Source: Octopus vulgaris (taxonomy: Eukaryota). From it: a stretch of 64,000 bases of DNA. The DNA lies in contig OX597828.1 of NCBI GenBank assembly GCA_951406725.2, positions 48,236,001-48,300,000 of the forward strand, read 5' to 3'. Positions 41,044-58,384 of the stretch are shown one piece after another. The notes beneath the pieces were generated by a model that made no database searches, was not told where the DNA came from, and was given only the letters and a program-made list of their open reading frames with translations. How positions within the stretch are numbered: position 1 is the stretch's first letter; each line of letters opens with the position of its first letter. The position numbers and the translations under genes are program-made.

Positions 41044-44000
41044 GTGAGTTCAGTTATAGTTTTTCATTGTTTTGTTTCTTTTCGATCTCCCTCACCTGTT
41101 AATTTCTTTAAGGTTTTCCCTTCTAATTGTAGGTGGGGTTACACTTTTTTTAATGTTATTTTTTATTTATTGTGGGTGGTGTGGCTATATTGTATATTGT
41201 TGGTGCAAATATTTTACAATATTCAAAATGTCCAGTTTAAACCATTTAATTGGTTGCTAAGTGTTGCCATGGCAGCTAGTCTGTATCACTAGCAGCAGCA
41301 GCAGCAACAGGTGTCATAAAGTACATGTTCCTTATTGATTTCTTTCCTTTTACATATTGTCTTCTGTATTTCTCCCCCTTCCATAGTGGCACCATGGCTG
41401 ACCCAGGTGAGAAGCAGCCTGCTTTATTATTCTTTAGTATACTTAAACTAGTATTTTCATAAGAAAGCATTAATATCATTATAGAAAATTTGTATTTTAT
41501 ATTCAAGTTTTATAAAACTATCTCTTAATATTTTAAAGCCGTCAATAATTTATGTAGATGTTATAGTTTCATTGTTATTTATTTATTTTTGTCTGTTAAA
41601 ATGTTCCATTATTTATAAGTGTGAGACATGTACATGTCTAGATTTATAAGCTATTATAATTTCAAATATACCAATGAATTAAATCAGGCTGCTCCATCAA
41701 TTAGTGTTAGGTGAATTTCTATGGCTTAACTTGTTGATTCGCTTCATCCCTTCCCTTTCTAATGATCCCATGTCATGGTTGCTTTAGCATTTGTGATTTA
41801 GATTATTAATTATCCTCCCCAACCAGCCTGTCCTACAGGCTGGTTTTTGAACAAAGCTTTTGCAGGATAGTATCGCCTACTCCTCCACAGCTAGGAGGAT
41901 GTGAGCAGGTGCTCATTGGTTGTTGCTAGGCCACTAAATATCAACAAAAAACTGGTGTATTGGGGTGTAAAGAGCCATTTAAGTAGTGCTACTAGTCAGG
42001 CTGGTTCATTCATTATCAGTTATTCCATTGGCTACATCACTATCATGCTGCTCTTTAGACCTGAAATGTTGTCTAACAAGTCCACAGGCAACCAGTTTTC
42101 ATCCCTCTCTGTCTTACTTTTATACACAACAAAAGAGATGATGATGGGAGTACATCAGTCTTGTTTAACTCCTACTTGAACACACACTCACACACATGCA
42201 GTGAAAACTAATGATGTTTTAACTGACCACTTTTTGGTCAATAGGTCACCTTGGGGTATGTATTTTCTTTCAGATGAATTTTTAAAATTTTATTTTTGTG
42301 ATATCTTTACATTTTTTTTTCTATTTTGTGTGTTTATCAACTTTTAACATCTCCAATTTTATTTCCCTTTGGCTATTTCTGTGTTGTATATTTCAAGTCC
42401 ACTTAATGCTTCTCTTTAACTGAAATTGAAGTAATTATATTTTATTGAAGAGGTGGGTGACTCTTATTAAATTTTGGCATTTATAAATTCTAAGTTACTC
42501 TTTAGTAGGACTGATAGTAATGGTTTTGTTATTTTCTTGCTCCTCATTCAGCAAATTAAGGGGTTCTGGTTATTTTTTTTTTTAAGGTTTTTTTTATATT
42601 AATATTTTTTCTCATTGCCCAAATTTACAAGAATTTTTATTTGTGAATCTGGTATTTTTCTTTATCATCCTATTGTTCCTTTCCAGTCTACTTCAGTTTA
42701 GTTCTATTTCTTCAGTGTGTGGGTTTTCTAGTTTTTCTACCTTTCATCTTAGTGCTAAAGATATACACTGTTGGATTATGTGGTTGCTAGGTGTGAGGAG
42801 TTGGTGTTCAATTGCATGTGCACACACAGGCACACTCTGGAATTGATTAGGTGTTACAAAAGAGATTAGATACATCTGAATTTAGTTTTAGGCATAGCAG
42901 TTACATCATTTTTAGCAGTTTGGCCAAAGAGACCAATGGAATAATTACGAGACTTAAAATTAGTACTGGGGTTGATTTGTTTCACCAAACCTTTCACTCT
43001 GATGCTTTAGCATGACCACACTCCAATAACTGAATCAAGGTAAAAGATAAAAGATGAAAAAAAAACTATCTTTTCATGTGTCATGTGTTGAGTCTGAATC
43101 TCCATCTCTTTGTTAAAGGCTTTGGTAAAACACTCTCTCTCTCTCTCCAGAATTATATTTGATATTCACTGTTAGGCATGTTGATTAATAATGGTAGTTG
43201 GTGTTCCACATGAAAAGAATTTTCATTTGAGTCTTCCTGAGTTTACTGTCAGTTCAGTTGGAGTTGAAAGCTGAGTTTAGCAGCCATTTTATCAGTTTTC
43301 TCTATCTTCATGCAAAAGAAGCAGGTACCTTCCTACTTGGCTGATTTACCTGTTGCTACCCTTTATTAATCTTAAAGGCACTCTTTTTACCTTTAGATTG
43401 ATTGCTGGGGCTATTGTAGGCATTTTTTTTCCATATGCAATTTCTAAAGATTTACTCTAGTAATTTGTAAAATTTTACTTACATGGATGGCTTGTGAAAA
43501 AATATTTCTGTAAATTAAACCCCCTAAATATTTGTTAGGGAGCTGCTTTTTATATATATACTTCTGTGTATTACAAATGAGACTAATGGGTTTTTGTTTT
43601 TCATTTTAATTGATTTTTCAACAGGCATAATGAAGCGGCCACTAGAACAAGAAGATGATGACTCATCGATGAAGAGAGCTCGTGGCAGTGGGCCAAAAAT
43701 TGAGTTAAGAATTTTACTTCAGAGCAAAGTAGGTTTCCAAAAAAAAACCCTTTTAAAACAATTCAATTTTGGGTCCTATTATTATTGCTGTAGTTTTTCT
43801 TCAATTAAAATGCATTTAAAAAAATTTTTTTTTTGGTGGGGTCTTATTGGATGTTTTCTGCAACACTTGCCCTTCTAATTTTGAGCAGTTGGTCTCCTTT
43901 CTTCATATGTCCATACCACTTATTGCATTAGCTTTTAACTTCTTTTTACTCTTGTGCTTTTCAGCAATACTCATAATTGCTGCTTCAAAATATCTTTCAA

Positions 44001-47000
44001 AAATGTGTGATAGTGTAACTGATATAAGCGAATAGGTTTAGAATAGTTTTCTTTGCAAGAAACGAACTAGATTTTTTTTTTTTTTTACCTAGATGTAGGC
44101 TTGCATTAATATCAGTTGATTTTTAATTTAACTAAACACACACACACACTCCCTCTCACCCACACTTGTTGAATAATAACAAAGTTTGTATTTGAAATGT
44201 CTTTCAGAATGCTGGAGCTATCATTGGCAAGGGTGGCAGTAATATTAAAAGATTAAGAGAACATGTGAGTATTTCTAATTCAACAGTTTTTCCTTTACCA
44301 TTTTCTCATATTATATTTTTTACTGTTTTTGTAATAATGAAAACAAAACTAGGCATTGCTTCTGCCTAGATGCTAGTTGCCATTTTATAAGAAGGTGACA
44401 TTAATTATTCTCTTGAGGGTGGGTGTGTTGTTATCAGTAAATATTAGTACCGAGTATTTTTTAAACTTTGTCTTAAAATAGAGATTAGAAATATATATCT
44501 ATCTAACTATTTATCACATTTTGTTGTAAATATTTCATCTTTGAAAGTAAAGAGATGATTATCCTTTATCTTCACCTTCATCGGAAAATGAACTTCGAAA
44601 GTAGTGAAGGTTGACCAGTTTGTTTCATTGTCCAAATTGGCCGTCAAATTTGACAGTTGTATCTAACAACTATTTATCATATATATATATATATATATAT
44701 GTGTGTATATATATGTATATATATATGTGTGTGTGTGTGCATATAAGTATATAAAAAGCACACCACATGAGATGCTATTTTCTGTTCTTACCCATCTTTT
44801 TTCTTTTTTTTTTAAGAAATTAATTCCCATATTGTATATTCAAACTGAATTGTTTTTCTTTTTTCTTTTTTTTTTTGTTTATATATTAAATTTTTTTTTT
44901 TTTTTTGTCATTTTAAATATAAATATTGAAATCTAGCTTAGTTTATTTGTATTTCATTTTTGAAACTGACATTGCTTTGTTTTATTTTTTCAAATTTTTT
45001 TTCCATACGGCTGCAATTCTGTTGTGATGTCTGGACTAAAATAAATAAATAAATAAATAAAATAAATGAATTTTCAAAATGATCTTTTTCACAAAGCATG
45101 CAAAATATTTAAGATCGAAACTAGTTTAAACTGTCTTTCTTATTTTTTTTTTTTCCTCCCCTATCTCTCTTTCTCTTTTTCTAACTTGTTTCTTGTGAAA
45201 TTATATGATCTTACTCCTGAACTTTTGATGATGATAGTTTTTTTCCCAAACTGGACTTCCAGTGCATGTCTAATAAATGATAAATGTAGCATCTGAACCC
45301 GACTATAGTGATTATAATAACTTGAAACGCTAAGCAGGAGTTGTAAAGGGGTCGAGAAGTAACCCCAGTCTTGCACAAAAGATGGAGGTGCATTTAACTT
45401 ATAGCTAATTCTCCTTCTTTATTCCTTTTAGGTATTATTTCTTTGAACAATAACCATGCATGCAAGAATGTTTTATTACTATGGAACAAAAAAAAAAAAA
45501 CTGTATTTATAAAAAGAAATTTTTTCAAATTCTGCTTGTTGACTGGGATGTTCCCCCAATCTGAAATGTAAGGCTTTGCACTGTTGTTCTTTTTATCAGT
45601 GGCAGCTGAATTCGACCAGCCAGCAGTTAATATCGTGAAGATATGTGTGAGGGGAAATGTAACTTTTCCTCTCTCTTTCTCTCTCTCACTCTCTCTCTCT
45701 CTCTCAGGAACAAAGCAGCTTCCTTTCTCTTTTATAACCCATTCCCGGGAACCTGTCTGTCTCTAAGAAGGGAAAAACTGAATTGAGGAGAAAGAGAACT
45801 AGTCAGAACGTTATAGGGGAAAACAAGACTTTCCCTGCAAGTATCTCTCAGTACTGCAAGTTTGTCTTAACTAATGCCTCCAGTTTTTATTCCACAGAAT
45901 TTCAGCCCCGTTGAAGTTGACTTGTTCAATGAATGTATGGATTCCATTTATATTACTTTTTTATGCCCATTGTGAAGATTTCTGGTAGTAATACTTTGTT
46001 ATATATATCTTGCCTGCCCCATTCTTCTTGCCCTTCCATGTCCACCAATGGCCCGTCTGTTGACCCTGAATATCCCTGACCCACGGAACGTCATCCCTGC
46101 CCGTCCGTCCGTCCATCCATGATGCAGTTCAAAGCAAGTGTTACAGTGCCCGATTGCACCGGCCCTGAACGGTATGCACCCTACTGCATTGTACTACTAC
46201 ACATTTTATTAATAACTGTTTCATAATGTTAAAAGCCCATTGTAAGTTCTTTTTTCTCCACACTGTTTTTACATTTTTTTCTTCCCACCCTTTCAAAACT
46301 TATCTGATGTCATTCACTCTTTAGTTCTTTTTTTTTACTTCTATTTAAATTTATTTTCCCACTCTTCTGTCACCCTCTAAATTTCTTTTTCTCTCTTTTC
46401 TCTTTCTCTCTCTCTCATTCTCTCTTATACCCAGTAAATGTAGCTAGCTAGTTAGGATCTTGGGAAATAACCACATACAGAGCTCAATAACTTGGAATCT
46501 GCATTACTCCCTGCTAGATGTATTAATATTCAGTCCATCCTGCCCAGCGATTCCCAGTCAACGACCAAATGTAAAATTGGGTACTTCATACTCATTATAG
46601 TTCCTTGTTACAGCTTCAAAAAATAAAATATTTAAAAAAATTGTTTATTTGCTTTTTCATCATGGGTTTCTATTTTCTTCTACTGCAATTCACTAAGTGA
46701 TCAACAACTTGACTTTTTTTTTTATACAATTCATATTGTAATTTAGATGTCTATCATAACTCTAATATAGTTTTCTTTTAATATGGAAGTGTTAAACCAG
46801 CAGCTATTATTACTATCCTCCAAGTTAGTGGATGACACTTGAAAAGTTGTATGTGCTCTGTGAATTGTAAAGATAGTTGTATATATTTATTCTTAAGTCA
46901 TTGAGTTCTGTATCAGTGGAGATCTCTGCTTAAAAATGAAAGGGCTTGGGTTTAAACAGCCTAACAATTACTTTGGGTATTTAGTGGTTTTTTATTTATT

Positions 47001-50000
47001 TTTAGTTTCATCTTCATGGTTTTTTTTTTAATATTAAATTCTCATACTCCAAATTCCCCTTGCTTAATTATATTTTTTAATAAAAAAAAAAAAAGTATTA
47101 ATGTATATTTATAAATATATTTTATTTTCCTTTTGAGATTTACTAATTTATTAGAACTTGCTTCATGTCACTTAAAGGAATACTTCATCACTATCAAAGA
47201 CCTAATTATCAAAGCTAATATTCTAGTAATTTAATTCATTTTATTCTAAGCTTTGGGTTTCTTCTGCACTTAACCATTCCCTCTTAATAGACAGCTTCAT
47301 ATGAAATGTGACACAGCTCAGAGTTTTAAATACCGTTTGGTTTCTATATATATATATATATCTCTACATAATATGAATTTGTTAAACAATAAAACTCCAA
47401 TGTTTGTAAGGACTAAATTCCAAGGTCTCTAGATGATATAGCTGCTGAAAGAGGTTAGAACTAGATTTCAGTAACTGAGTAAATGTAGTTCGTTCATCTA
47501 CACAGCATATCGTGAACGTTTAGTACAACAGTCAGTTAGTTTATTTTATTTTATTTTTATCCATTTGAACATTCAGATGGATTATGCACTTAGTTATTAA
47601 TCTGCATACCAGTCTAGTAAATTGGTATTTTTATTTTTAAAATTTTTTTAAAATAAAAGACATCTTGACTTATATTGTTTTCTACAGCTATAATTATTTT
47701 AAATCCTTTTTACATTTTACAGAATTTTGACAATTGGTGCAGACATAGATACAGCATTGGACTGTTTGGCAGACATTATACCATCCCTTGAAGATGTATG
47801 TATATTTCATGTAGTCTTTTGTAAAATATTGTCTATATTGAAGCTTCACTTTTCTGTGTTATTATTGGGATAAAAATCTAAGGCTCAATCTCTGTTGCAG
47901 TACAAACAGTTCTCCAATGATGAGTATGACTGTGAAATAAGAATATTGGTTCACCAGAGCCAGGCTGGTTGCATTATTGGTAGAGCTGGTTTTAAGATCA
48001 AAGAGTTGAGAGAGGTGTGTATCTTTCTTTGTTCTTCATTCTTTAGTGTCTATATTTTTCTCTTGCATTTTAACCCTATTTGAATGTTGAAGTTTTTTCT
48101 TACACGTCTCTATAAATATCAAATATTTCAGAAAACTGGAGCAAACATCAAGGTGTACTCAACCTGCTGTGCTCAGTCCACTGATCGTGTTGTGGCAATT
48201 TCTGGTCGACCTCCTGTGGTCATAGCTTGCATTAATGTTATTTATGAGCTTTTGGAAATGGTAAGACAATATATATTTTTTATGTTTTCTATTATATATT
48301 ATAGTAAATGTTTCAAAACTCTTCTCAAATACATAATTGTAAAGTAAATGACATGGTGTGAGGAACAGGCAACAGTTGGTGTATAATGGTTCCTCTCTCT
48401 TCTGTAGGCACCACCGAAAGGAGTTAACCAGCCATATGATCCACATAACTATGATGAGTATTACGCCCATGACTATGGTGGTTACACCATTGCAGAGGGG
48501 GGCCGTGGTAAACTACCTAGGGGTGCCCCGCCACCACCACCACGAGGAGGTGTCTCTCCATTGATGAGCCCACAGATAAGAGGACGGTAAGTTAACTTTC
48601 CAGATTTATATATAATTAGACGCTAGCATAAATAGCATTGTTTTTAAAGTACTGTAGTATGTAGAAACTTAAGATCTTTGATCACTTTTCATATTTAAAT
48701 GCTGCATTTGAAAAACATACCTTCATAAAATATTCCCTAATTAATATATTAAGTCACCCATTTAGTTGACTTGCCTGAAAATTAAGGGAAATAATTCCCT
48801 CGTCCTTATTTCATGTATAAACTTCAAAAGTGTTAATTTTTAAAATTTATTTCATTATTTCATCTCTTAACCCTTCATCAAGTATTTGAAGTATTTTCTT
48901 CATTGTATCATTTTTACTTCCCATTTATTTTATTCATTTGTTCTTCATCACACCTGAGTAACTTCATTAGTGTAATTAAGAAGTGTAGTGTTAATAAACA
49001 AAGCTATTAGCAAAGTGAGCCTTTGATCAAAACATAATTCCTAGCCACTACTTTTGATCCATAGATTTAATTTCCAGTAGCTCTATCCTAACCATTCATA
49101 AGATATTCGCATATTAGAGAAATGCAAGATCTTCTAAAGATACATATGTTTGTGTCAGTAATACTATATCTTAGAATATTGACTTAGAGATTCTCTGAAA
49201 AATTAAAATGGCTCAGTTTTTTTTTTCTTAGGTTTTGTTTTCTCTTTATTGTAAGTTAAGTATTAATGAAGTTTCACTCTTATCAATATTAAGGTTAATA
49301 TCAGTTTATGATATAGTTTTTATATGTAGATGTGAACTAGTTTGTGGCCACTGATTTTTTGGCAATTTTTATATAAACAATGATTTTCATTCTCTATATT
49401 TCATGCTTTGAAATGCTTAAATTTGAACTCCAAACTTTTGGATTCTGCTGTAAATAAGTCTGAATTGTGAAAATTTCAGAGGTACTGCTGGAGGAATGGG
49501 AGATATGGGCATGGGAGGGTCTGGCTCCATGAGCAGGGGTGGACTACCTAGCCTAACTGGAGGTAGAAACAACATGGGTGCTGCTCTCCCCTATGGCAGT
49601 GGTGGCGGTGGCAGTGGGGGCAGAGATGATGGCCTGCAAGAACTTGGAGGAATGAGGTAATAACACTCTATCATACTAGTGCTGTGCAGCAGAGATACCT
49701 CTAGAGAGGGCCCCAACCATCGTTAGATTATTCCTCTTGAACAATTTGTAAGTTTGTCAAAATTATTCTGTAGCCAAGTTCAATCTACAAACAAAAAACT
49801 TGCAAACTAATCAATGATATTTTAAAAACAAAACAAAACAAATTCAACAATCCAATTTTCATCACATTTTATTACTTTTAGTGGTTAAGTTTATTTCGAA
49901 AGCTTGTTGATTTTTTTTGCCTTTTCATTCAGTATTTGCCCAATTTCTCTTGAAGCTGTGCACTTACGAGTTGATAGTGGCCTTAAGTGTTCTAATTGTG

Positions 50001-50355
50001 GATTGAGTTATTTGTCCTAGGCAAACGTGCACAAAATAGCATCTAGGCTTAGCTTCCCTCTTTAGCTCTCCCCAAATTTCTGTCTAGAGGTATCACTGAT
50101 GGTCCTAATTAGGATTTAAATGTTATTCGAAGAATGTTTTATTGTTTTCTTTCCTCATTAAAATTCCTATTTCACAATTAAAATCAATATTATACTCTCT
50201 TCTAATGATCTCACTCACCTCAAGGTAAACGTAGTCACATCTTTTTCCTGCACCAAGCAGTTCTAACATCTTCATTCTGTTGAGTCAGACGGCATTAACT
50301 CACTAAATATATTTCTGTCTTCTGCAAATCTCTTTATTGAATCTAATTCATCAAA

Positions 50356-50396
<41 letters not shown>

Positions 50397-53300
50397 GGTA
50401 AATATTTTATTAGTTTCTCATTATCTCATAATGTTCCATGTTGTAGCTATTATTTCATTTCTAGTTCCACATTTATTTCAAATCTGTACTTTATAAATAT
50501 TAATCGGCCAAATGTTTCAATAATTTCAGGAATGCCATGAATGGCAGCATGGGTGCTCGTGCCGGGCGTGGAGGAGGTAAGTAAATTGCAGATTCTCTCA
50601 AACTCTTCAGCATTATTACTTTCTCTTTCATCAACATTTTCCTAAAATGTTCCCTTTTTTCCCTCCTCCCCTTTCAGATAACAGGTTTGGCAATCCTGCA
50701 AGAGGAAACAGTGGCCAAGGTTTCTATGGTGGCCAGCAAAACTTTGCCCAAGACAGTATGGTAAGTTACTTCAGTTATTAACTTTGTGATGATTCAGATG
50801 AAATATTTTGAGATATTATTACCCCTCCTTTTTTTTTTCCTTCCAGGGTGGTATGGGAAATCAAGGGATGATGTTTGGTATGGAACAGACTACAACCACA
50901 CAAGTAACCATTCCCAAGGAGGTAAGTTTCATTCCATTAGTTTCGCTGTACTTAAAAATTTTGCTAGAGTATTCTTAAAAAGAGCCATGTGTAATTTTGA
51001 ATTTTGTCCCTTTTGTTTCTCCCTCCATTTAGCTTGCTGGTGCCATTATTGGCAGATGTGGAACTCGCATTACTGATGTGCGGCGCCAGTCTGGAGCCCA
51101 AGTGGTTATAGATGAAGCCCTTCCTGGTTCCAGTGATCGGATAATTACTATCACAGGAACTCAAGAACAAATTGATGCTGCACAGTTTCTCTTGCAGAGC
51201 AGGTTAGTTGAATGTCATGTAAAGACTTGGTCTTTTTCTCCTCTTTGTTTCTCCTCTTTCCTCTCTTCTATTCCTCATTGCATTGCATTCTGTTGGTTGT
51301 AAACAAAAGAGACACTAATGCCTTGATGAGAAATTGTATTAGCTATCTGTACCTTCATCTTCCATTACTCACATGTACTAACCTGTTTTTTTAGTGACAC
51401 TAAAACTTTTTACTACTGTTACTAAAAGTAAATCCAGTGCACGAAGAATTAATTCTATAGAATGGTTGCCACTTGATTTCCCATCCTCTCGTAGGAAAGC
51501 TTTAATTATTGATACATTATATCAAAAGGAATTTGCTATTTGGTTAATTTGATAATTGCATCTTTATCTAATTGTTGGTCCATTTAGGATTTACACAGCA
51601 TAAATTAGTATAGTTTTTATTTAGTAAGCTAGCAAAATGTATAATATATGCCAGAGAGAGAAGTGTAGGTTCAGTTTGAACACCTTTAGAAAAACTAAAC
51701 ACTAAGATAAGAGTGGTAACAAGTATTACAAATTCTCATTTATCCAATGTAAGGAAAAAAACAAAGCTTCGTTTTATTGATATCTTTTTTTTATACAGTT
51801 AGAAAGTCTGTTAACTTTTGGAATCTAAATTCTTAGTTTAAATGTCTTTTAAATAAAGAAAAATATTAACAGATGTATAAATCGAATTTATTTCTTAAAA
51901 TCTAAATGTGTGTTATTGTGTTACATTGTGAAGTAAGGGAGTGTTTCCTCTAAAGATTAATGTTCTTGTTGTAGCCATTACTTTTTCACAAAGTAGCTTT
52001 AGGTTTAAAATTTTGATGGTACCAGTTTAATGGGTGTGGTTAAGGCTTTCTTGGTTAGCATTGGGTGGCATCTGGTGGCTATTGTCGATGATGTGCATGA
52101 GACATTGGTGATGGGATTTGGCTTGTAACTAACCTTTGGCACCCATGGTCTGGAAGACTAATGAATTTTGTTGTTGTGTAGTGTGAGAACAATGAATCAT
52201 TATCTTCCTGAACCATGGATGTAAGTAGCAGCAACACCAGCTCTTGCTCATCCCTATCCTCTTCTCCCTTCCCTCACAACTGCCACTCATTCGATTGACC
52301 CCCTCCTGGATCCCTTGTTGATGGCTGCCCACCACTGCTGCTTTGCTAACCTTCAGCTCTGTTTCTGCTGCTGCTACTATTGTCATTACTACTACTATTA
52401 CTACTGTTTGCTACTATTATTATTATAACTACTACTACTATTGTTATAACCACTATCCAGAACTGGTACTGTGATTGGCATGTTACAAACTAATTTTTAT
52501 TTAATATTTTTAAATGTAAAATAATGAAATGTTTAAATGTGCATGACATGTTTACAGAGCGAAATTACGGTGAAAACTGAAGCAACTTGTTGGAATCGGT
52601 TTAGAATTCTTCCTAAATTTTAGATTTCAATTTTAGGAAAGTTTCCATGCGTCCTTGGTATAAATTATTATATTCTAATAATTGATTTGACATACAAAGT
52701 TAATAATTAATACACGTGTTGATTAAATGTCTTGTGATTTGTTGCCCTATGTGTTAGGTTTGTGTTGAAACTGGAGATAAATTCTAATTAAGGTCTTTAG
52801 GAAATATTTAAGTCAGGAAGTATAAATACGTACATAGCTGAAATTTAAAAAAAAATTATCTACAATAGCTACTGTCAGTGTGGGTGCACATTGATGGGAA
52901 ACCTAAGTATGAAATATACTAAGTTACATGAATTGCAGGATAACACTCCTTTCTATTATAGGCACGAAGCCTGAAATTTTGGGGTAGGGGTTAAGTTGAT
53001 TATATCAACCCCAGTGCACAACTGGTACCTATTTCATCAACCCTGAAAGGATGAAAGGCAAAATCAACCTCAGTGGAATTTGAACTCAGAATGTAAGGAC
53101 AGATGGACAAAATGCTACTAAGCATTTTTTGCCTGGCATGCCAACGATTCTGCCAGCTCACTGCCTTCTAGCAGGATAATAACAGTTGTTTACTGGAGAA
53201 CAATTCTGCAACATTGCAACTCTTATACAGCATATTCTTTCATGGCAGCCTGGTTTTTGTTTTTTCTTCTCTGGCTGTAAATGGCAAGCAAGTAGAAAGT

Positions 53301-55114
53301 GTTCATTCCCAGCTTAGGTCAGTTGTTAGCAAATGTCATTTTGAGGAAAGTTTTTTTTTTTTTTTAAATTTTACTTAACAGCCAAGTTTTTAAGGGAAAA
53401 AGTAAAATTTCTTGAAATTATAAACCAGAATGGGGTTCTTGTTTCAGAATTTTTTTGTTGTTGTTTACTGGGTACAATAATACCCATTAAATCGACCCAG
53501 TCTTTGACTAATCAAACTCAAAAGGTTGGAATGACAACACAAAGAGATACCATTCATTGCCCTTATAAATGCTAAAAAAAACACATTTTCTAACAATTTT
53601 CCTTTTCCTATTCATATACTCCAGAAAATGGTTTCTATTGCTAGTTATTTCCTGTTGATTTAGAAATGAAATGCATTGATTTATTTTGTTGGAGATATAT
53701 TTATAGTTTGGAAACTGAGTTACAGGTGTTCCAGACAGGTGACTCAGTTTGAAAATTTGTTTTGGTAAACTAGTCAGATGTGTCAGTTTGTAGAATCTTT
53801 GGCATCAGTTGGTAAATGAAAATAAGTAAAGCTTAATAGAATTTTTATGTGTTGGATATTTAGATAAGAAGTGAGCAACTGGACTAAACAAAGTTTTTTG
53901 TGCTTTGTTCAGACATAAATAGCTTTTCTGTTAATTTCCATTCTCAAACTCTGACTGGTTTTAACCTTTTTGATACTAAATTCTTATTTTCAAAATTAAA
54001 TAGAACAGAGGCAGTGTATTGCAACAAAAGGGTTAAAATATTTAACATAACTTTTCACATACAACTTGATTTATTAGCACAATCGTAGAAACTATCCACA
54101 GTGATGTAAGGATTAATCAATTAGATTTCTTTCTGAACTTCTTAGGAATATTATAAAAATCGTATCTAGTTCTAACCTGGTTATTGCTACTATAACAACA
54201 TAAAGGTTGTTTTGTGATGTCCAGTTGTTGGAACATCCGATTTCTAAAACTGTTATGCTCTAATCCATAGACAATTTACTGTAATTGCATTTACCAACAT
54301 GTTTTGACTACAACGTTGGAGAGTTTAATTCCTGCAAACTTCCTTTATATGTATTGTTTCATATCAGTTTTGCTTTATGTACTTGATTATATATAAGTAA
54401 CTAACTTCAAGATATGTATGCTTATATATCGTAAGCTGATATTCATGTTCCTGAAAATCAGATAGCTTTGAATTAACTGATAGCATTTATCAAACTTGTG
54501 TAATTGTGGGAAAGGGAGAATTTTTAGTTACAACATAGGAATAATCTTGGCTTATAATGAAAATACTTTTTTGTTAGTACCTACAGAGTTGGGAGAAGTT
54601 ATTTTCACATTTGTTTCTCAGACCTAGGGATTTTAAAACTAGTCGATTCTAACCCACAAGCCTACTTACTGTTCAATGTGTTGTGTATCTACATCATTGC
54701 TCCAACTAGTTCGTAGGGAAAGCACTAAGACATGTAGACTAATCTCTTACACACTTCCTACACTATACCATGATCAACTGTACTTCATGTTTATTTGTTT
54801 TTTTAATTTCCCCAACCCCTTAATCTCAACTAATTCACCTTTAGCATAAGAAATTTACTGTCAACTTACAAATCTTACTGCCATCATTTTATATAGTTAA
54901 ATTTACTATTGTATTCAATAATAGTGGAGAGGCTAGATTAACCGTCCCAGCCTCTCTCTTGTAATTACAGGTTATGTTTTATATAAATTCTAGTTGGATT
55001 TTTTTCTTTGTAATTTATTGATGAAAATGACTTAATTTTATTATTGTCTTTTTGATAGTAAATCATTTTCCTCTTTTTGTTTTCAGTGTGCGGAAATATT
55101 CAGATAAATTTTGA
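41028..55114 (+). CDS. HNRNPK: heterogeneous nuclear ribonucleoprotein K (spliced, 14 coding exons, ~431 aa)
   Basis: Exons 41028-41043, 43625-43728, 44208-44264, 46128-46171, 47723-47795, 47901-48014, 48132-48260, 48408-48586, 49480-49656, 50530-50576, 50678-50760, 50847-50921, 51033-51202 and 55087-55114 join through GT-AG introns into one open frame of 1296 nt. Motifs: MKRPLE..KRAR NLS, KH1 ([26 protein letters not shown]), KH2 ([28 protein letters not shown]), [20 protein letters not shown]/Pro-rich region, KH3 ([20 protein letters not shown]) and C-terminus SVRKYSDKF, matching the hnRNP K architecture. Confidence 0.95.
43625..43728 (+). CDS. HNRNPK: hnRNP K exon: NLS and start of KH1
   Basis: tttttcaacag| [35 protein letters not shown] |gtaggt. 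Confidence 0.93.
44208..44264 (+). CDS. HNRNPK: hnRNP K exon: KH1 GxxG loop
   Basis: ctttcag| [19 protein letters not shown] |gtgagt. Confidence 0.95.
46128..46171 (+). CDS. HNRNPK: hnRNP K 44-nt exon (KH1)
   Basis: gatgcag| [14 protein letters not shown](R) |gtatgc; similar to vertebrate YNASVSVPDSSGPER. Confidence 0.93.
47723..47795 (+). CDS. HNRNPK: hnRNP K exon: end of KH1
   Basis: ttttacag| (R)[24 protein letters not shown] |gtatgt. Confidence 0.93.
47901..48014 (+). CDS. HNRNPK: hnRNP K exon: KH2 N-terminal half
   Basis: ttgcag| [38 protein letters not shown] |gtgtgt. Confidence 0.95.
48132..48260 (+). CDS. HNRNPK: hnRNP K exon: KH2 C-terminal half
   Basis: tttcag| [43 protein letters not shown] |gtaaga. 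Confidence 0.95.
48408..48586 (+). CDS. HNRNPK: hnRNP K exon: Tyr-rich linker and Pro-rich/RGG region
   Basis: ctgtag| [48 protein letters not shown]... |gtaagt. Confidence 0.93.
49480..49656 (+). CDS. HNRNPK: hnRNP K exon: Gly/Met-rich low-complexity region
   Basis: tttcag| (R)[21 protein letters not shown]...QELGGM |gtaata; phases compatible with both neighbours. Confidence 0.85.
50530..50576 (+). CDS. HNRNPK: hnRNP K exon (RGG)
   Basis: tttcag| (R)[15 protein letters not shown] |gtaagt. Confidence 0.85.
50678..50760 (+). CDS. HNRNPK: hnRNP K exon
   Basis: ctttcag| (D)[27 protein letters not shown] |gtaagt. Confidence 0.85.
50847..50921 (+). CDS. HNRNPK: hnRNP K exon: start of KH3
   Basis: ttccag| [25 protein letters not shown] |gtaagt. 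Confidence 0.92.
51033..51202 (+). CDS. HNRNPK: hnRNP K exon: KH3
   Basis: catttag| [56 protein letters not shown] |gttagt. Confidence 0.95.
52137..52223 (+). ncRNA. mir-7: miR-7 precursor hairpin (5p mature ~52151-52174) in last intron of hnRNP K
   Basis: 5p UGGAAGACUAAUGAAUUUUGUUGU(U) carries the miR-7 seed GGAAGAC and pairs with the 3p arm AACAAUGAAUCAUUAUCUUCCUGA. Lower stem CCAUGGU/ACCAUGG; basal UG at -14/-13, apical UGUG, CNNC at +18. miR-7 is known to lie in the last intron of hnRNP K in vertebrates and Drosophila (bancal). Confidence 0.95.
52945..53167 (-). mobile_element. SINE family C in last hnRNP K intron
   Basis: Same unit as the 15330-16295 array. Confidence 0.75.
55087..55114 (+). 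CDS. HNRNPK: hnRNP K terminal coding exon
   Basis: Long T-rich acceptor tttcag| (S)[11 protein letters not shown]; similar to vertebrate SVKQYSGKFF. Confidence 0.92.
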
Positions 55115-55900
55115 GGCCTGCACTGCATGGCAACTCTAGCAGGGCAGAAGCTGGCAAAATTGGAAGGAAGAAGGGCTGGGTGGTTTTTGGGATGGGACAG
55201 AAAACAAACAAACAAATTTAGTTAAAAGGGTTGGTTTGGAAAGATACAAGTCAGATTCAGTTAATATGAAAGGCAAGAATGCCTACAACAACAAAATAAA
55301 AATGGGGAAAAAAAAAAGAAAAAGCAACATGTCTACTATGTGGGTGGTGCAGAAATGTAGGATGGCAGCTGTATATTCAATGTGGAGTACAATAGCTGTT
55401 TTTGTAGCTTCTGGCACATGTTAATAATGGCAATGCCACTTTGCACACTGCTGCCCACATTGCTCTTTTCAATCCATTTTCTTTCTTTATAGTGATCTAT
55501 GTATTTCAGCATCTATCCTTTGCACTTCCTAATTTTATTGATCCTAATGGTAGTAGAGGGCCTATTTTTATATCTTAGCTCTTAGTTGAAAAAGAAAAAA
55601 AAAAAAGTAATTTCCTAAACATGGGCGGAGTTTTCTTTATCACGTTTTAATTTTTAATTTTTTTTTTTTTTTACCCGCCGCCGCCACCATCACCAGTTGT
55701 CAGTTGGACCCCACTGACCTCAGTTTATCTGGTGTATATTCATGTGTATGCATGTATTTTATATATGCATATATATAAAGCATATACACATACATGCATA
55801 TTATATATAGAGCACTACTTTAAATTTTATCTGATTCTTAGTTATGAACACTTTTTTTTTTGTTGTCTTATTGAGTAACTTAATATCCGTCAACTCACTG

Positions 55901-55940
<40 letters not shown>

Positions 55941-56450
55941 ATATATATACATATTCACACGCACACAAACACATACCCCCAACCAAAAAGAAAAAAAACA
56001 ACCCCCCAAACTATGCATGCACATACACCACTCACTCATACATTGTTTCTGTCACATTTGTATATTTCATTTCATGTTCATTAACTTTAGCATTCCTCTC
56101 ATTGAAAAATATTAAAAAAAAGAGAAAAGAAAAAAAAGGGAGAACTATGGGGAACAACTTCAAATGGCCAGAGCAAGCATTATTATTATGATTATTATTA
56201 ATATTCATCATTGCCGCCCATTATTCTGATGTGTATGGATCTCATTGTTAGGTACTGATTTAGTTAATGTTGTGAGTTCCATGTGTTGCAGTAGTTAACC
56301 ACCACCTGAGGCTGCCAACTAGGGGGAGGGGAAGGGGGCATGGGGTGTTCTCTCCTTTTAAATATTGTTTCAGCTGGCGTACACATAGGTTTGTGAATAC
56401 ACCTGTTTTGGCAGATTTGGTGTTAATAAAAGTTGGTTTCAGAATATATA
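55115..56450 (+). other. HNRNPK: hnRNP K 3'UTR (approximate end)
   Basis: Follows the stop codon; AATAAA at 56425-56430 followed by a U/GU-rich tract. Confidence 0.65.
56425..56430 (+). terminator. polyadenylation signal AATAAA
   Basis: Canonical hexamer with downstream T-rich element (56467-56510). Confidence 0.65.
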
Positions 56451-57229
56451 TATCATAAAATATGGATTTGGTTTTCTTTTTACCTTTTTTTTAAATTTTT
56501 TTTTTTTTTACTAATTTGTTGTACAATTGGCTCAATATTGGAACATATTACTTTCCATGTCCTTTTATCAATCCTTGAAACACAGTAGTCAAACCCCTCA
56601 TGTTTTGAAAATTATAATTGTTCCAGAGGACTTGAGGTGTACTGGACCAGATGTTACCCTCATTTACATTTCGAATCTCTTTACATTGTAAATTAATTGA
56701 AGAAATGCTTAATGTTTCTCAACTAATCCTATCCCTTTACTCTTTCTATCAATATATATTTTACACATGTACCAATTTTGAGCCATTTGTGAAGTTTATT
56801 CAGCAGCTGTTTCCATTAGCCTCTGCAGTCACCACTCTGCTGGGCTATATAGGTAGTAGCTGCTGTTTGAGTCTTTCATATTGACATTTGCAGTGTTCGT
56901 ATTCCTGGAATCAGATTACCCAGATTTGGTCAAATAGTAAATTGTGGAGAACTGCTTTATGGAAAGAATATTGATGAGCCACCAAGGAGCACATAGCTCT
57001 TGTTTGTTAAAATACTGAACAGAATTTCGTGGCATCCATATATGTACACACACACACACAGTTCTGTCTCTACAACATCTCAGATCAATCATCTGTCAGC
57101 TGTTGTACCAAATATTTTGTAGCTGATAATAATCTACACTGAACACAGTGTTGGCCAAAAGTCACCTGACAGTAAATCAAAACCATTATTTATGTTTAAC
57201 AACTGAATGACTATGAAACATCATGAAAA

Positions 57230-57470
57230 TTTGGAGTAAAGATTGTTTGCCAACATAACATGGCAGTCCTGTTTAGAACAAGTGTTGCTGTAATTTAGCC
57301 CCAGGAGAAAATGTTTCCAGCTGGCTATACGACATGATCTGCTAGATTCTCTTGTTTGAAAATGTAAGGAAACAGATCATGTATAGCCAGCTGGAGATGG
57401 TCTCTTGGGGCTAATATTTGTCCTAAGCCAGGACTGCCATGTTATGTTGGTAAACAATCTTTACTCCAAA
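57230..57470. repeat. ~240-bp foldback inverted repeat
   Basis: TTTGGAGTAAAGATTGTTTGCCAACATAACATGGCAGTCCTG..CCAGCTGGCTATAC..ATGATCTG is mirrored on the right arm. Confidence 0.88.
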
Positions 57471-58384
57471 GTACTGTTGCTCAATCTCTCTCGTGAGATT
57501 TACAAATAGTAATTTTCTAATCATGAAAATTGTTCAAACTGAAGTCCTTGAGTGACACATTTTTCCATTCAAGTCAATACAGAATTATAGATAGTAATTA
57601 TGGACTTTCGATTTACTGTCGGCTGACTTTTGGCCAACCCTGTGTATTCCAGCTGGTTCTGATTTTTGTGGGTTACCATTTAAATAATGTTTGTCTTATG
57701 ACAAGAATTGTAGCTTTTGGGGATTTTCAATTCCAAAAAAAACGTTGGAATTCTGTTCTGTTCCTAGCTAAGAAGGGCCCACTGATGGCCCCTTTTTATA
57801 TTTTGGTGTAACAACATTAATTTTCCATGAAATGTACATGAATGTTGATTTGTCAACTACACGCTCCGACTGGGGTTACCCCTGCAGCAAGACACCTGTT
57901 TGTCACTGTATCATAATCTGATCTCTCATCACCTGGCACAAAACCACTCCCTTTCAGTTGAGGTGTTTTGCAAGTTATTTGGTGTCATTGGTAGTGCTAG
58001 TGCCTCATATAAAGCACCTAGTGCACTGTAAAGTTTCGGGCATCAGGAAGAGCATCCAGCCATAGAAACCATTCTAAAGCAAACAGAGCTTAGTGCAGTC
58101 ATACAGCTTGCTAGCTCCTGTGAAACTGACCAATCTTTTCCAGCATGGAAAACTGGTTAAATGATGAGCAGACAGCCTAATCTTTTATTTTAACATCCAC
58201 TTTTCCATGGTGTTGACAAGACTTTGGGCTGGTTTTTAGGGTAGTACTTCCCATAGTCCTTGAAACAGCTCAATGGTTGAACAACTGTTCACTGAAGACT
58301 ACGTACTGGCCATGCAAGATTGGCTTGCACAGATAGGTATTTGAGACGTTTTCTACGACTGGATTCACCGCCTGTTGTCAACCC

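Follow-up and report, generated by a model that had tools for sequence, protein, structure and literature searches.

A variant Mir-7 hairpin in the last hnRNP K intron of Octopus vulgaris, with arms that appear to be shared with squid

A hairpin in the last intron of the Octopus vulgaris hnRNP K gene is very probably this animal's Mir-7 gene, whose product would silence as an ordinary miR-7 through an unchanged seed. Its mature arm carries two changes, a substitution of G by A at position 11 (G11>A) and one extra A, both of which would predate the split between octopus and squid and would have a slight effect on 3' pairing. A Mir-7 gene of octopus already has a published annotation, and a data set of 2021 contains the variant sequence, unnamed. 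The variant is thus real, known as a gene, and a modest evolutionary curiosity.

The window analysed here is a stretch of 64,000 nucleotides from contig OX597828.1 of assembly GCA_951406725.2, read on the forward strand, and all positions refer to it. An initial annotation, made from the letters of this stretch, had described a variant miR-7 hairpin, and the coordinates it gave for the hairpin (52137-52232) all proved correct on re-reading the sequence. The features on which the argument rests are the following.

43630..55114, + strand: hnRNP K, 13 coding exons and 424 amino acids from ATG to stop, an open frame with all introns GT-AG
51203..55086, + strand: last coding intron of hnRNP K, 3884 nt, which holds Mir-7, from splice joins in contigs
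52105..52237, + strand: conserved island, roughly the pri-miRNA, from the extent of the X16 and X20 contig alignments
52137..52138, + strand: basal UG, at -14/-13 from the mature 5' end
52139..52150, + strand: lower stem, 5' side, pairing with 52210-52222
52151..52175, + strand: mature miR-7-5p variant, 24-25 nt, the same consensus mature being listed in the small-RNA tables of Euprymna
52152..52158, + strand: seed (nucleotides 2-8), identical to canonical miR-7 in the Rfam alignment and the precursor alignment
52161, + strand: G11>A substitution relative to the Rfam mir-7 consensus
52164..52165, + strand: extra A at position 14 or 15 (placement ambiguous), without compensation in the star arm
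52175..52178, + strand: apical UGUG, with the same letters in the Euprymna precursor
52176..52189, + strand: loop, 14 nt between predicted Dicer limits, with other letters at 52183-84 in squid and in the X16 and X20 contigs
52190..52211, + strand: star arm, 22 nt, its predicted 5' end set by a 2-nt overhang and its 3' end that of the Euprymna precursor
52229..52232, + strand: CNNC at +18, that is, 18 nt past the predicted 3' cut at 52211

The sequence from 52137 to 52232 folds into one long hairpin of -34.8 kcal/mol (z -3.83), a stability matched by none of 200 shuffles, and the 61-nt precursor at 52151-52211 gives a z of -4.57. The Rfam mir-7 family (RF00053) matches within 52000-52400 over the full length of the model at 41 bits (E 2.4e-7), with a weaker antisense shadow and no other family in that interval. 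This falls short of the gathering score of 51.8 bits, which is a database threshold and not a biological criterion, and at the gathering score Rfam gave no match in the whole 64-kb window. Comparison with the Rfam consensus bore out the description of the 5p arm as canonical miR-7 altered by G11>A and one extra A. The accompanying claim, that a change in the star arm preserves pairing, holds for the substitution, since A11 pairs with U52200 at a probability of 1.0 where the consensus has G-C. It fails for the extra A, for which the star arm has no matching insertion; the extra base produces a 2-nt bulge at positions 15-16, and the star columns of the precursor alignment run without a gap.

The three Microprocessor motifs, basal UG, apical UGUG and CNNC, are all present at the positions and with the correct spacing first reported, the window for CNNC being 16-18 nt. 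Singly they are weak evidence, and their chances of occurrence at the local composition are 0.07, 0.02 and 0.12, respectively; a second UGUG lies at 52182-85. Arms of 25 and 22 nt, a 14-nt loop and an imperfect stem agree with the structural criteria for microRNAs used by MirGeneDB, the ranges of this type being 20-27 nt for the arms and at least 8 nt for the loop (PMC11701709). The observation made by the initial annotation is confirmed.

That the hairpin lies in the last hnRNP K intron, on the same strand as the gene, had also been proposed, and is supported by the gene model, by spliced contigs and by the identity of the KH3 exon. Three of the five hnRNP K exons scanned matched KH_1, and among solved structures the best matches of the KH3 exon were to hnRNP K (E 1.6e-17) and then to PCBP2 (2.4e-11). 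Contigs from X15 (RNA) and X4 (RNA by our guess) join 51202 to 55087, skipping 3884 nt with GT..AG ends, and the hairpin is about 950 nt from the donor of this intron. The last hnRNP K intron is likewise the site of miR-7 in Ciona, human and fly (PMC6829576), and the octopus hairpin occupies this orthologous position in the sense orientation. It therefore shares with the MIR-7 family (hsa-miR-7-1, Drosophila, Ciona) its seed, 5p mature arm, hairpin and location, and differs from that family in G11>A with the star C>U, in the extra A at 14/15 and in the 2-nt bulge. Neither the hnRNP K gene nor the interval 55115-58000 contains a 7mer-m8 miR-7 site, and there is thus no sign of feedback on the host.

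Some other features of this gene were seen in passing. Short, GC-richer, exon-like stretches with AG and GT nearby lie at 45590-45660 and 46520-46590, in the introns flanking the third coding exon, and are possible alternative or poison exons. The last intron also holds a high-copy, SINE-like interspersed repeat at 52940-53170, over which the summed contig depth was very high in all four runs mapped. The two contigs of X15 end at 52156 and 52171, away from the predicted cut sites.

Evidence on the age of the two changes comes from squid. Data Set S1 of PMC8125070 contains, for the bobtail squid Euprymna scolopes, the entries miR_181709_2949 and miR_181709_3197 (rows 59 and 253), whose miRDeep2 precursor, compared by eye, shares 59 of 61 positions with 52151-52211; both differences fall in the loop, and the mature and star arms are the same as those of the octopus locus. 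The 5' end at 52151 and the star end at 52211, both predicted from the octopus letters, are the ends of this squid precursor, although the tables supply a consensus mature and a precursor with matching ends, not read stacks. In light organ miRDeep2 gives a consensus mature of 25 nt with a score of 1.5, in haemolymph one of 24 nt with a score of 710. The level of the microRNA in aposymbiotic light organ exceeds that in haemolymph (logFC -2.73, logCPM 12.27, FDR 0.02; PMC8125070). In that data set the sequence is filed as a 'predicted' miRNA without miRBase match or name, and four miR-7 names gave no match in seven supplements of the paper. The novel squid miRNAs counted in PMC8125070 include at least one ancient family, miR-7.

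Of four runs mapped on 52040-52330, X16 and X20 gave one contig each, at low depth (4.7 and 4.3); X12 and X22 gave none here, which may be due to filtering. The X16 contig aligns solely over 52105-52232 and the X20 contig over 52106-52237; beyond this island X20 diverges from the window on both sides and X16 on the 5' side. Four differences are common to them, at 52136, at 52143 and at the two squid loop letters, and the change at 52143, C to U, would leave the lower-stem pair intact as U-G. No listed difference falls in either arm, with 2 (X16) and 3 (X20) further differences not itemised and CNNC lying near the contig ends. Across the Euprymna precursor and these two contigs, the arms are more conserved than the loop and flanks. 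In another mapping, contigs from X4, X9 and X12 also span the hairpin, with no difference in it among those listed; 88 substitution and 36 indel rows are additional to that listing, and we place no weight on this result.

Because bobtail-squid small RNAs and two diverged RNA contigs show the same arms, G11>A and the extra A would together represent an old octopus-squid trait, the two lineages having split nearly 300 million years ago (PMC9699675). The same observations bear on whether the variant bases could be assembly errors, which had been named at the outset as grounds for abandoning the variant: squid small-RNA data and two independent contigs carry identical letters, and the star change matches the substitution, which refutes this reading; we assign it next to no probability. 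In O. vulgaris itself Mir-7 shows broad neural expression and is also expressed in suckers (PMC9699675, table S5), and the miRNA annotations of that study were deposited in MirGeneDB; the Mir-7 annotated there is probably this very gene.

The variant had further been described as a functional, lineage-specific miR-7. It is real, expressed (in squid) and restricted in lineage, and its seed is intact, but G11>A is not unique to the lineage; specificity is weakened again by the snails, which have 3' variants of their own, and by the fact that compensation covers one of the two changes. Oyster cgi-miR-7 has the same seed and a canonical arm (PMC3916443), and the miR-7 of Biomphalaria and Bradybaena has the same seed, keeps G11 and the 24-nt spacing, and carries U18>A (PMC7328434, PMC7838618). 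A metagenome scan with a gapped pattern, which is blind to variants such as this U18>A, returned a redundant set of at least 116 loci. Among those listed, the centre is canonical in 52; another 28, every one of which folds, show G11>A without the extra A, and the remaining 36 have some other centre, 28 of these without a fold. The cephalopod centre occurs in none of those listed. The G11>A loci among the first 80 represent 15 distinct precursors with flanks common to them and unlike those of the window. Like the octopus gene, these hairpins (for example L019, L027 and L061) nearly always carry the star C>U, with A11 facing a star U in 14 of 15 aligned; unlike it, they are without the extra A and have another loop and other flanks.

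Our alignment of the window with metagenome precursors took in 31 of the 37 distinct ones; the six omitted are canonical and mostly have long or unclear stems. In these 32 sequences pair 11 is A-U in 16, G-C in 14, G-U in one and unpaired in one, a covariation that likely reflects two or a few independent events, not 16. Since G11>A without the extra A is found in 28 of the 116 metagenome loci listed, the compensated substitution is likely recurrent and likely arose more than once. The extra A, judged from the same comparisons, would be the distinctive cephalopod trait. Related non-cephalopod Mir-7 hairpins with G11>A include L019, L022, L027, L029, L035, L037-L040, L044, L047, L050, L062, L071, L075 and others, matching at about 301-323. 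Three further loci (L017, L113 and L116, at about 301-324), comprising two related sequences with 12-16 paired positions, have an intact seed, keep G11 and show a different, one-base-longer centre, and are possibly another Mir-7 insertion variant; a Mir-7-like hairpin at L036:259-323 (- strand) has U at position 11.

The octopus locus could in principle be a diverged duplicate, with a canonical Mir-7 retained elsewhere in the genome. A DNA search of the 2.8 Gb genome assembly, which may be incomplete, found the Mir-7 locus alone, and the canonical 18-mer of miR-7 is absent from it. An 18-nt pattern covering the canonical and variant forms found the locus and one non-folding site, and a gapped pattern one more site that does not fold. 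These additional pattern matches, and a second Rfam match scoring above the true gene (48.5 against 41 bits), would favour a duplicate. However, the higher-scoring match (L004), which came from 55 candidates scored with the Rfam mir-7 family across the genome, forms the tip of a long inverted repeat that is nearly perfect; it lacks a miR-7 seed and matches many families unrelated to mir-7. The two sites from the pattern searches, L002 and L006, show no fold (z 0.5/-1.3 and 1.2/0.2). The duplicate reading is largely refuted and we regard it as extremely unlikely; as far as these searches reach, a single Mir-7 in the genome is the best reading. The L004 repeat (about 900-2200, C4 near 70.975 Mb) is an inverted duplication with arms of about 650 nt by eye, and a false-positive trap for the mir-7 model. 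It is also very unlikely that the genomic variant is partly masked in RNA by A-to-I editing that would make A11 resemble G again. A11 does sit in a paired stem and coleoids edit heavily (PMC9699675), but the Euprymna consensus mature has A at position 11. The editing table of PMC9699675, whose inclusion rules we have not seen, has no Mir-7 row, its four 'mir-7' text matches being Mir-71, and that paper reports no functionally important miRNA editing.

The reading that we prefer, an ordinary miR-7 with an altered 3' region, would work as follows. The hairpin would be transcribed together with hnRNP K and cut by Drosha-DGCR8 at 52150/51 and 52211/12, aided by UG, UGUG and CNNC; Dicer would then cut near 52175 and 52190, leaving the 5p arm, whose 5' U is predicted to be unpaired, to load into Argonaute. 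An unpaired first U is typical of 5p matures (PMC11701709). The substitution at position 11 would be balanced by the star C>U, and the guide would be about one base longer because the extra A is predicted to loop out. With its seed intact the variant therefore likely works as an ordinary miR-7, and since the seed is unchanged the main target set should be unchanged as well; what is predicted is that 3' pairing becomes slightly weaker and re-registered, with consequences for a minority of sites. Fixation of both changes likely preceded the octopus-squid divergence, and they have persisted since; such long retention fits general constraint on mature arms as well as selection for a new form.

Position 11, however, is not an inert one, because G11 adds to the affinity of miR-7 sites and begins the pairing with Cyrano, and this counts against reading the variant as an ordinary miR-7. 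In human miR-7 G11 supports the positive-offset binding mode, and Cyrano pairing starts at this base (PMC8940178); trigger-dependent ubiquitylation of AGO2, in turn, requires 3' pairing (PMC13083262). The loss of G11 and the gain of an A could accordingly be imagined to re-tune miR-7, altering 3'-supplementary sites, or making or breaking a link between the microRNA and a decay trigger, in cephalopod neurons. Computed duplexes point in this direction at positions 11-16 (-2.5 kcal/mol for the variant vs -4.1 for the canonical form) and for the variant guide paired to a canonical 3' site (-10.4 vs -16.3 kcal/mol, a loss of about 6), and the two changes are fixed across octopus and squid. At positions 12-17 and 13-16 the computed energies are the same for both forms, and nearest-neighbour models predict AGO-bound affinity loosely (PMC8940178). 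According to the same source, miR-7 is among the weaker 3' pairers, without the GG, GC or CG steps of the strong ones, and 3' contributions largely survive a shift of one base. A genome search for trigger-like sites of the variant, defined as an exact 11-nt 3' match with a seed match, found the antisense of the locus itself alone, against two matches for a reversed control. The canonical-type pattern gave five matches against three for its control, which is not above control; both searches covered exact blocks, with wobbled, bulged and spliced sites outside their scope. The recurrence of G11>A in another lineage also argues against re-tuning. An effect on 3'-supplementary targeting or target-directed decay, as first suggested, is plausible, but re-tuning of miR-7 by the variant is possible but unsupported, and we consider it unlikely. 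A bolder version, in which the neural miR-7 of the octopus-squid ancestor lost G11 and gained a base, rewiring its 3'-dependent targets or turnover, with G11 lost again elsewhere, has in our view a similarly small chance of being right. If true, a rewired miR-7 and the repeated loss of G11 would amount to a natural experiment on the purpose of an ancient microRNA's centre.

We found no paper that remarks on the miR-7 variant, and no Nautilus or octopus Mir-7 sequence, in the literature searched, which included few subscription papers and had some supplements and MirGeneDB outside its scope. A full-text search with the variant motif returned one unrelated cancer paper only, and the supplement of PMC11067994 contains no miR-7 motif. 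The variant slips past homology filters: it lies below the Rfam cut-off and entered the squid tally as a 'predicted' miRNA. Probes or inhibitors modelled on canonical miR-7 would mismatch it. It provides a clean octopus-squid marker within a very conserved microRNA. Moreover, because the altered base, G11, is known to matter for the 3' pairing of miR-7, the canonical guide, the G11>A guide and the guide with G11>A plus the insertion form a ready series in which the constraint on non-seed positions may be tested.
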